Source: Thermoplasmata archaeon
GTDB taxonomy: Archaea > Thermoplasmatota > E2 > JACPAO01 > JAHFTW01
DNA length: 64,000 nt
Assembly: GCA_034667725.1 (NCBI GenBank)
Contig: JAXDQS010000002.1
Span: forward strand, 1 to 64,000
Direction: 5' to 3'
The notes beneath the pieces are model-generated. The model worked only from the letters and a program-made list of their open reading frames with translations. It did not search any database and was not told where the DNA came from. Below are positions 1,997 to 3,677 of this stretch, piece by piece (within the stretch, counting starts at the first letter, position 1; the number at the start of each line of letters is the position of its first letter). The translations under genes and the position numbers were made by a program.

Positions 1997-2348
1997 GCTG
2001 CCCGACCCGAAGGCCCCCCGAGACCGTGCTTGCACGGACTGTGAGAGGGGGCGCAATGGCCGGGCGACAGGGCCTCGTGCCCACCACCGGCAGCGATGCC
2101 GGGAACCTGGACCGATGCCCATCTTTTGGGCGGCCCTCTCCTGAGCGGCTGGCGCGTCGCCAGCGCCGTGATGGGGAGACAACCTCGGTGCGGACACGGC
2201 CGCGAACACGCTGTCGCCTCCCCGGCTGGGACACTGCTGACCGTCGCAAGACGGACCGTCCCTTCCGGTGGTTGCCAACGCGGGGTCAAGGTCCCGACTG
2301 GGCTGTCATCAGCCTTGGATGAAGGGACCTGTTACCGGGTTGGGCAGC
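1997..2348 (+). ncRNA. Candidate large structured non-coding RNA (unassigned family)
   Basis: 13-bp terminal helix 1997-2009/2336-2348 with a G-U pair on +; long helix 2058-2086/2187-2227; CUUG, GCGA and GCAA tetraloop hairpins; GA-rich internal loops; short pyrimidine run downstream. Confidence 0.7.
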
Positions 2349-2472: not shown

Positions 2473-3054
2473 CTACCGCCTCGCCTGCTCTTCGCAAATC
2501 CGCACGAAGTTCCGGAACATCGTCACCCCGGCCTGGGTGTGCTCGACCTCCGGGTGGAACTGCATCCCGAACAGCGGCTTCGACGCGTGCCGCATCACTT
2601 GGACGGGGCACGCCTCCGACTTGGCCAGCACCCGGAACTCCTTGGGCACGATGGACACCTCGTCGTGGTGGCTGCCCCAGACGATGGTGCGGTGGGGCAC
2701 GTCGCGCAGGATGTCGCCCTCCTCGACCACGTCCATCTCGACCAGGCCGAACTCGGGGTTCTGGCCGGGGGCCGCCTCGCCGCCGAAGTGGCGCGCCATG
2801 AACTGGTGGCCGGCGCACACGCCCAGGATGGGGATGTCGAGGCGGTCCAGGTAGCTGCCGACCTCGCCGAGCTTGCCGTCCAGGCCGACGCGGGCGGCGC
2901 CGCCGGAGAGCAGCAGGCCGTCCAGCCCCGCCGCCTCCAGCTCCGCCACCGGGGTCGTGTTCTCGACGATTTGGGTGTCCTGCTTCAGGTAGCGCAGCAC
3001 CCGCCATTCGCGGTGCGTCCACTGGCTGCCGTTGTTGACGACCCAGATCTTCAC
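2473..3054 (-). CDS. guaAA: GMP synthase glutamine amidotransferase subunit A, copy 2
   Basis: KIWVVNNGSQWTHREWR, GVCAGHQ nucleophile, QFHPE; GTG start. Confidence 0.9.
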   Translation of the reverse strand: MKIWVVNNGSQWTHREWRVLRYLKQDTQIVENTTPVAELEAAGLDGLLLSGGAARVGLDGKLGEVGSYLDRLDIPILGVCAGHQFMARHFGGEAAPGQNPEFGLVEMDVVEEGDILRDVPHRTIVWGSHHDEVSIVPKEFRVLAKSEACPVQVMRHASKPLFGMQFHPEVEHTQAGVTMFRNFVRICEEQARR

Positions 3055-3095
3055 AGGCCGGCGACGCCAAGCCCCCACGAAAACCCGGCGGCTCG

Positions 3096-3677
3096 TCAGC
3101 GCTTCGCGCTTTCCTCGCAAATGCGCACGAAGTTCCTGAACATCCTCACTCCCGCCTCGGTGTGCTCGACCTCCGGGTGGAACTGCACCCCGAACAGCGG
3201 CTTCGACTGGTGCCGCATCGCCTGGACCTCGCAGCCCTCGCTGCGGGCCGTCACGCGGAAGCCAGGCGGCGGCGCCTCGACCTCGTCGTTGTGGTTGCCC
3301 CACACCACCGTCGGTGACGGGACGCCTTGGAACAGGTCGCCGTCGTCGAGCACCTCGATCTCGACGCGGCCGAACTCGGGGCTGGCGCCGGCCCGCACGC
3401 GGCCGCCGAAGTGCAGGCCCATGTATTGGTGGCCGGCGCACACGCCCAGGATCGGGACGTCCAGCCGGTCCAGGTAGTCCGCGATGGCGCCGAGGCGGCC
3501 GTCGACGGCAAGCTCGGCGGCGCCGCCGGACAGCACCAGGCCGTCGAGCCGGGCGTTGGCCAGCTCCTCGACCGGGGTGGCGTTGTCGATGATCTGGGTC
3601 TCCTGCTTGAGGTAGCGCAGCACCCGCCACTCGCGGTGCGTCCACTGGCTGCCGTTGTTGACGACCCAGATTCGCAT
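3096..3677 (-). CDS. guaAA: GMP synthase glutamine amidotransferase subunit A, copy 1
   Basis: Same class I GATase Cys-His-Glu motifs (GVCAGHQ, QFHPE). Confidence 0.9.
   Translation of the reverse strand: MRIWVVNNGSQWTHREWRVLRYLKQETQIIDNATPVEELANARLDGLVLSGGAAELAVDGRLGAIADYLDRLDVPILGVCAGHQYMGLHFGGRVRAGASPEFGRVEIEVLDDGDLFQGVPSPTVVWGNHNDEVEAPPPGFRVTARSEGCEVQAMRHQSKPLFGVQFHPEVEHTEAGVRMFRNFVRICEESAKR

Follow-up and report, generated by a model that had tools for sequence, protein, structure and literature searches.

In RNPs of the box H/ACA class, L7Ae binds the K-turn of the guide RNA, and Cbf5-Nop10, together with Gar1, binds the lower stem and the box. The two strands of the pocket hybridise with rRNA so as to flank an unpaired U-N dinucleotide, whose U Cbf5 isomerises to pseudouridine. 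Eukaryotic H/ACA snoRNAs have a hairpin-hinge-hairpin-tail layout and no K-turns; in yeast, snR46 guides position 2865 of 25S rRNA and snR191 guides helix 69. Among euryarchaea, the two-hairpin H/ACA sRNA sR-h45 of Haloferax volcanii is a guide for 23S rRNA pseudouridines in helix 69 and in domain V. The dimensions of archaeal guides follow published rules, with a lower stem of 7-9 bp, an ANA box, in most cases ACA, 14-16 nt downstream of the pocket-closing pair, and the second G.A pair of the K-turn or K-loop 8-11 layers above the pocket (PMC4652768). Archaeal guides also tolerate non-canonical forms, as in the H/ACA-like sRNAs of Pyrobaculum that lack the lower stem and the ACA box (PMC4652768).

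Pab40 and its counterparts Pf7, Pho40 and Afu4 are three-motif H/ACA sRNAs (Muller et al., PMC2377435). Motif 1 of Pab40 guides position 2588 of 23S rRNA and motif 3 guides position 2016 in stem-loop 69, and motif 2 is a weak guide with an experimentally active target at 23S position 1932 (PMC2377435). For motif 2 of Afu4 the proposed target is the equivalent of Pab 2647, an assignment that Muller et al. judged to lie outside their rules (PMC2377435). Using the Pab35/Rlu text of the same paper, in which Pab 2549, 2672 and 2697 equal E. coli 2457, 2580 and 2605, we derived an offset of 92 between the two numbering systems in domain V (PMC2377435), so that Pab 2588 corresponds to E. coli 2496 and Pab 2647 to E. 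coli 2555.

The RNA gene described here is about 360 nt long and occupies approximately 1997-2357 on the + strand of a 64,000-nt window, the whole stretch of DNA that was analysed, from a MAG of an uncultured Thermoplasmatota lineage. We read it, with a probability of roughly 0.88, as a three-motif archaeal box H/ACA guide for three functional centres of 23S rRNA. Its ends are approximate and were drawn from the limits of conservation: alignments with relatives place the onset at about 1995-2000 and the end past 2352-2356, and a short T run at 2358-2360 lies just beyond the conserved 3' end, where relatives have T runs too. An A/T-richer element on the + strand (1966-1977), some 22-30 nt before the conserved part of the RNA begins, is predicted to be promoter-like, of the archaeal BRE/TATA type; relatives carry an AAAGG-N-TATA-like block at equal upstream distance, and the element is a putative promoter of the gene.

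The first-pass annotation had placed the RNA in an intergenic block, and this is borne out by the flanking genes. Both of these lie on the minus strand: a DUF167 (YggU-family) gene (1338-1937) faces the RNA with its start, and a class-I glutamine amidotransferase gene (2476-3645) faces it with its end. Spanning the stop codon of the amidotransferase gene is a 12-bp inverted repeat (GTGCGGATTTGC and its complement, at 2447-2458 and 2494-2505), which could form a terminator-like hairpin. The 5' end of a 16S rRNA gene, identified by its Rfam match, lies at the contig edge (1-116, minus strand), so that the 16S start is about 1.9 kb from the RNA gene and divergent in orientation. Four genomes of the same genus (loci L032-L035) share this arrangement, with the RNA gene 2-6 kb upstream of a divergent 16S-tRNA-23S-5S operon, so that guide RNA gene and rRNA operon show conserved linkage. 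The fold of 1990-2355 is more stable than that of shuffled sequences on both strands (z -3.3 on the plus strand and z -3.1 on the minus strand), so folding energy alone neither proves an RNA nor picks its strand.

Comparison with Rfam, which had been proposed together with the first-pass annotation, gave no strong match to a known family in the RNA region. At gathering thresholds the 16S fragment was the only match in the whole window, and no family was returned for the RNA. The earlier view that the RNA is neither SRP RNA nor RNase P RNA holds, as both were located elsewhere in the genome: RNase P RNA (108 bits) and SRP RNA (138 bits) were each found on another contig, and neither was detected in the region at E values up to 10. 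The weak sub-threshold matches were mostly to H/ACA families, the best-scoring among them included: HgcG hairpin 3, HgcE, PyrR209, TB11Cs5H3 and Pab91. Positions 2275-2343 (motif 3 below) aligned to the third hairpin of HgcG/Pab40 (model positions 201-267) with 17.5 bits, the gathering score of that family being 77, and positions 2000-2065 (motif 1) weakly matched HgcE/Pab105, PyrR209 and TB11Cs5H3. Motif 2 alone matched nothing in Rfam even at E 10, and HgcG (RF00064), which stayed below its 77-bit threshold, gave no match for motif 1 or motif 2. Since 17.5 bits stands against a required 77, we file the RNA as a divergent Pab40/Afu4-like guide and not as a demonstrated member of RF00064. The earlier suggestion that the RNA may be undescribed is right in that this lineage's version is divergent and beyond Rfam recognition, but the class, box H/ACA guides, is known, and the first-pass annotation had itself put H/ACA models among those to be compared.

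Homologues were found by three routes. A blastn search returned them from 15 of 24 genomes of the same family at 67-76% identity. A pattern taken from the last hairpin occurred on 23 contigs, nearly all labelled as Thermoplasmatota or Thermoplasmata MAGs; the three labelled otherwise were two uncultured Halobacteriales and one 'bacterium'. A covariance model built from the 3' 163 positions detected full-length copies in 24 of 31 genomes within the family and in five of six genomes from two sister families of the order; the same model, run with stricter filters on 68 genomes of other families of the class, yielded one weak match and otherwise found no copy. Helix support was then judged in alignments of 15, 23 and 24 sequences with RNAalifold and pair counting, and by duplex energies, in which cognate strand pairs were compared with non-cognate pairs taken from other relatives. 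The first-pass annotation had asked for homologues and covariation; relatives exist, and their hairpins covary.

Three K-turn hairpins of one design covary across 23-24 relatives, and in each of them a lower stem, a pocket and an upper stem are found, the hairpin arrangement by which an archaeal H/ACA guide is recognised. All lie on the + strand. Motif 1 (2000-2065) is supported by covariation of its lower and upper stems and by cognate duplexes that are stronger than non-cognate ones. Its lower stem (2000-2007/2058-2065) and upper stem (2013-2018/2047-2052), both covarying, enclose the pocket strands 2008-2012 and 2053-2057. The K-turn has tandem G.A pairs of G2020 and A2021 with G2043 and A2044, and a tip at 2022-2039. 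The ACA box (2067-2069) follows the upper stem after 14 nt; both of its A residues are invariant, and the C is present in 23 of 24 sequences, the remaining one having ATA.

Motif 2 (2107-2193), for which both covariation and the comparison of cognate with non-cognate duplexes speak, has a lower stem at 2107-2115/2185-2193 and an upper stem at 2136-2141/2173-2178, and its pocket is branched by a small hairpin (2117-2131) within the 5' guide strand, ahead of the 5' guide proper (2132-2135). Its K-turn joins G2143 and A2144 with G2170 and A2171 below a tip at 2145-2168. The 3' guide ACAAC (2179-2183) is invariant, as is, in 24 sequences, the ACA box (2194-2196), which lies 15 nt past the upper stem. 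The alignment supports two small spacer hairpins separating motif 1 from motif 2, a variable one at 2070-2082 and another at 2087-2102.

Motif 3 (2275-2343) shows strong covariation and consists of a lower stem (2275-2283/2335-2343), a 5' guide (2284-2288), an upper stem (2290-2295/2324-2329), a K-turn (G2296 and A2297 with G2321 and A2322, tip 2301-2314) and a 3' guide (2331-2335). At the place of the ACA box stands GCA (2344-2346), 13-14 nt after the upper stem here and 15 nt after it in one relative (G004). GCA occurs in 21 of 23 family sequences, whereas ACA is found in L048, L050 and all five sister-family copies, and on this account we regard GCA as a variant of the ACA box; it is the single point at which the RNA deviates from the structural definition of an archaeal box H/ACA guide. 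In this genome the lower stems of all three motifs have 8-9 bp with one mismatch each. The tandem G.A positions are conserved in all three and lie, by our own count, 9-10 stacked layers above the pocket, and with box spacings of 14, 15 and 13-15 nt for motifs 1, 2 and 3, within or next to 14-16 nt, the dimensions of the motifs fit the published rules.

The arms that the first-pass annotation had listed are all present: GCCCCC/GGGGGC with a CUUG-capped tip (2013-2052), the CCGGCA-GCGA-UGCCGG hairpin (2087-2102), GGGAC/GUCCC with a GCAA loop (2228-2262) and GGUCCC/GGGACC (2290-2329). Its K-turn-like loops are borne out by three arms with K-turn-type tandem G.A loops, and covariation is seen both in these arms and in their lower stems. 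The proposal of a stand-alone, K-turn-bearing ncRNA on the + strand is supported as well, and with its K-turns the RNA probably binds L7Ae.

A 6-bp helix that the first-pass annotation had missed surfaced unprompted in RNAalifold. Its 5' strand (2198-2203, + strand) lies just past the ACA box of motif 2 and pairs with 2347-2352, just past the GCA of motif 3, thereby closing a 3' domain that holds an accessory hairpin and motif 3. Both sides have changed at four of its six pairs (G-C to C-G, A-U or U-A), G-C has become G-U at one more, and 97.8% of cells are paired; further compensations come from the sister families and from a copy in a genome of the same genus (G008). Across the 3' domain, 95.2% of cells are standard-paired, against 75.5% in shuffles (none of 500 shuffles was as high) and 27-52% in slid registers, with both-side changes at 15 of 21 pairs. 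For the motif helices and the long-range helix, cognate pairs are better than non-cognate ones by 2.4-5.0 kcal/mol. We take the long-range helix to be a putative structural clamp.

The 5' strand of this helix is followed by a conserved linker GA..ACGC (2204-2211, + strand) of near-invariant columns and then by the accessory hairpin (2222-2268, + strand), which has an asymmetric internal loop and no K-turn. The stem sequences of this hairpin are variable, and for its lower stem the crude comparison of cognate and non-cognate duplexes is too coarse to resolve covariation; its CUGCUG loop (2234-2239) is invariant in 23 of 23 aligned relatives and in the sister families. The loop can pair, through wobble pairs, with the CAGCGG of the 3' tail in every sequence. 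This pairing excludes the helix 2198-2203/2347-2352, which has true compensatory changes, and we leave it as unproven. CUGCUGC is also complementary to GCAGCAG, which occurs once in 16S rRNA (328) and once in 23S rRNA (2535, in helix 91; L032-L035), the latter some 20 nt to the 5' side of the motif 2 site in the A loop. A 7-mer is expected about 0.3 times by chance in roughly 4.4 kb, so these matches are not evidence.

Targets were sought in the rRNAs of the four same-genus genomes, as 23S rRNA is absent from this MAG. Numbering was checked by alignment to an E. coli 23S copy that runs one base ahead of the standard in domain V, and was corrected by the known positions of U2552/G2553 and A2503/U2504. 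Motif 1 pairs with UUGC and CUUCG on either side of an unpaired UA (4+5 bp), which places its target U at E. coli 2496. Two alternative CUUCGGG sites for this motif (16S 641 and 23S 1743) were rejected, the 3' guide being unpaired there. The ACAAC of motif 2 pairs with GUUGU of the A loop and its 5' strand with GCC(C), leaving U2555-C2556 unpaired (5+3, up to 9+4 bp). One or two guide bases remain unpaired beside the upper stem, and the 5' guide contributes 3-4 bp. A shift to U2554 would leave 1 bp on the 5' guide and is disfavoured. U2555 is the least secure of the target assignments. Motif 3 pairs in helix 69 with GUAAC and UGACCC around an unpaired UA (5+6 bp), with U1915 as the target.

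The target sites are identical in five genomes, with 8-11 bp per duplex, and in a genome of another genus whose own 23S rRNA is available (G042) the same site was top-scoring for every motif. The stems vary, but the guide bases that pair are invariant. Each duplex taken alone reaches about the 95th percentile of best hits in shuffled rRNA, and since this exceeds the shuffles only marginally, it is conservation, together with the agreement with known pseudouridine sites, that carries the case for the targets. In yeast 25S rRNA, the equivalents of 2496 and 1915 are likewise pseudouridines (2865 and one member of the helix 69 pair), and the pseudouridine of the A loop stands at the neighbouring 2554.

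Compared with Pab40, Pf7, Pho40 and Afu4 (HgcG, RF00064), the RNA has the same number of motifs and predicted targets in the same 5'-to-3' order. For motifs 1 and 3 these are the targets with experimental support in Pab40, and for motif 2 it is the one proposed for Afu4; the active target of Pab40 motif 2 is 23S 1932, whereas the A loop is predicted here. [quoted passage not shown] The RNA differs from HgcG in being about 85 nt longer than the 276-position model and in having extra non-guide hairpins, a long-range helix that closes the 3' domain, and GCA in place of ACA after motif 3. From sR-h45, judged by its description, it differs in having three motifs instead of two. Eukaryotic H/ACA snoRNAs such as snR46, snR191 and TB11Cs5H3 have their targets at the same conserved positions as are predicted here. 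The alignment of the trypanosomatid TB11Cs5H3 (RF01544) to motif 1 scores 19.8 bits, with the pocket bases CGAAGG and CAA in common; this resemblance is one of shared target rather than of demonstrated descent. PyrR209 of Pyrobaculum (RF02807) matches the K-turn upper hairpin of motif 1 at 20 bits, and unlike the Pyrobaculum RNAs, all three motifs here have a lower stem.

The first-pass annotation had built its global fold on three other pairings, namely a 13-bp helix joining the two ends, a long interrupted helix with the core GGCGACAG/CUGUCGCC, and a switch or pseudoknot between ACCACCGG and CCGGUGGU. With such a closed fold and a switch, the RNA might be a novel L7Ae-binding scaffold, chaperone or regulator whose main job is not guiding. 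The 13-bp helix does dominate the single-sequence fold, and the minimum-energy fold of this genome's sequence prefers it as an end-to-end helix, disrupting motifs 1 and 3. Relatives lend the three pairings no support. The 13-bp helix, at -27.4 kcal/mol in this genome, has family means of -14.2 for cognate and -13.9 for non-cognate strands; the corresponding values are -17.4, -7.3 and -6.7 kcal/mol for the GGCGACAG/CUGUCGCC helix, and -15.3, -6.6 and -6.7 kcal/mol for the ACCACCGG/CCGGUGGU switch. All three are thus peculiar to this genome, and with cognate and non-cognate energies about equal in relatives we do not count any of them as conserved features. The 13-bp helix moreover competes with two covarying lower stems. 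With these elements unconserved, ACA boxes at the canonical distance, and pockets that match known pseudouridine sites in Pab40/Afu4 order, a role mainly as scaffold or regulator appears very unlikely, even though the invariant accessory loop and the covarying long-range helix are left unexplained by the guide model.

A different doubt concerns the number of working modules. The GCA of motif 3 departs from ANA, motif 2 has a branched pocket with 3-4 bp on its 5' guide, and motif 2 of Pab40 is itself a weak guide (PMC2377435), so that one of these two motifs could be degenerate, retained for the folding of the RNA or the assembly of its RNP, while the others are active. Across the order, both motifs have variable stems and invariant guide bases, which argues for selection on pairing with an invariant target, and we consider such partial activity unlikely. 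The loops with CUGA and UGAUGA-like sequences, whose resemblance to C and D boxes the first-pass annotation had noted, might also suggest a box C/D RNA or a mixed C/D-H/ACA RNA such as Pab21, which joins both kinds of motif (PMC2377435). We give this almost no credence: no C/D family was matched in Rfam at E values as high as 10, the GA loops are placed within hairpins as in H/ACA RNAs, 8-10 layers above a pocket, and there is no arrangement of terminal C/D and internal C'/D' boxes with guides of 10-12 nt.

The guide reading is consistent with the protein genes of the genome, in which Cbf5 (410 bits), Nop10 (74 bits) and an L7Ae family member (102 bits) were found; Gar1 was not found in the MAG, which is 90% complete. 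In the mechanism we propose, each motif would be a K-turn hairpin in which an open pocket separates the lower from the upper stem, with an ACA-type box next to it, L7Ae sitting on the K-turn and Cbf5-Nop10, with Gar1, on the lower stem and box. Motif 1 would direct pseudouridine formation at 2496 in the peptidyl-transferase ring, motif 2 at U2555 in the A loop, and motif 3 at U1915 in helix 69, while the long-range helix would clamp the 3' domain, in which motif 3 and the accessory hairpin lie. The sequences show the conserved and covarying structure, the boxes with their spacing, the complementarity to rRNA and the protein genes; that the RNA is expressed, assembles into an RNP and brings about these modifications is inferred.

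On this reading, a function can be assigned to an RNA gene that is conspicuous but had no annotation, in an order of Thermoplasmatota about which little is known, and three pseudouridines (four in sister genera) are predicted in helix 69, the A loop and the peptidyl-transferase ring. The ancient Pab40/Afu4-type guide would be extended to another lineage, past the reach of the Rfam model, and the alignment and covariance model could seed a broader one. Three small departures, namely the GCA box, the closure of the 3' domain and the invariant loop of the accessory hairpin, bear on the flexibility of H/ACA RNP assembly; current understanding is not overturned.

The number of modules varies among relatives. 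In sister genera (L013, L014, L015, L017 and L036-L058; for example L056:4619-5025), a fourth canonical H/ACA motif with K-turn and ACA box follows motif 1 and precedes motif 2; in this genus no more than a short variable hairpin stands in its place, and the spacer hairpins at 2070-2102 occupy the site of this fourth motif and its accompanying small hairpin. In G042, whose fourth motif has a GCAAC-type guide, the best site in its own 23S rRNA is GGU and GUUGCU around an unpaired UU, corresponding to E. coli 2606 in helix 93. For the AAAAC-type guides of other fourth motifs, no convincing site was found on the rRNAs of this genus. The copies in sister families of the same order (L084-L088) are about 480-520 nt long and retain all three motifs of this RNA together with the fourth motif and the accessory hairpin; their motif 3 has an ACA box. 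Ahead of motif 2 there seems to be at least one further K-turn hairpin with an ACA after it, which would bring the modules to five, more than in the three-motif Pab40-type RNAs named in PMC2377435.

As a tentative and rather unlikely extension of the guide reading, these RNAs might form a modular multi-guide platform tied to the rRNA operon that has acquired roles additional to ordinary guiding, with three modules in this genus, four in sister genera and perhaps five in sister families, the 3' domain being clamped beside the box by the covarying long-range helix and the CUGCUGCC loop, invariant throughout the order, binding a further partner. Candidate partners of that loop would be helix 91 of 23S rRNA, or an extra protein that tethers or chaperones pre-rRNA. 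Variation is also seen within motif 3. The same-genus G008 copy (L035:3170-3330, minus strand) carries an insertion of about 56 nt, folding into two extra hairpins, past the K-turn and ahead of the upper stem's 3' strand; downstream, the motif is otherwise intact, as are its GCA and the compensated tail helix.
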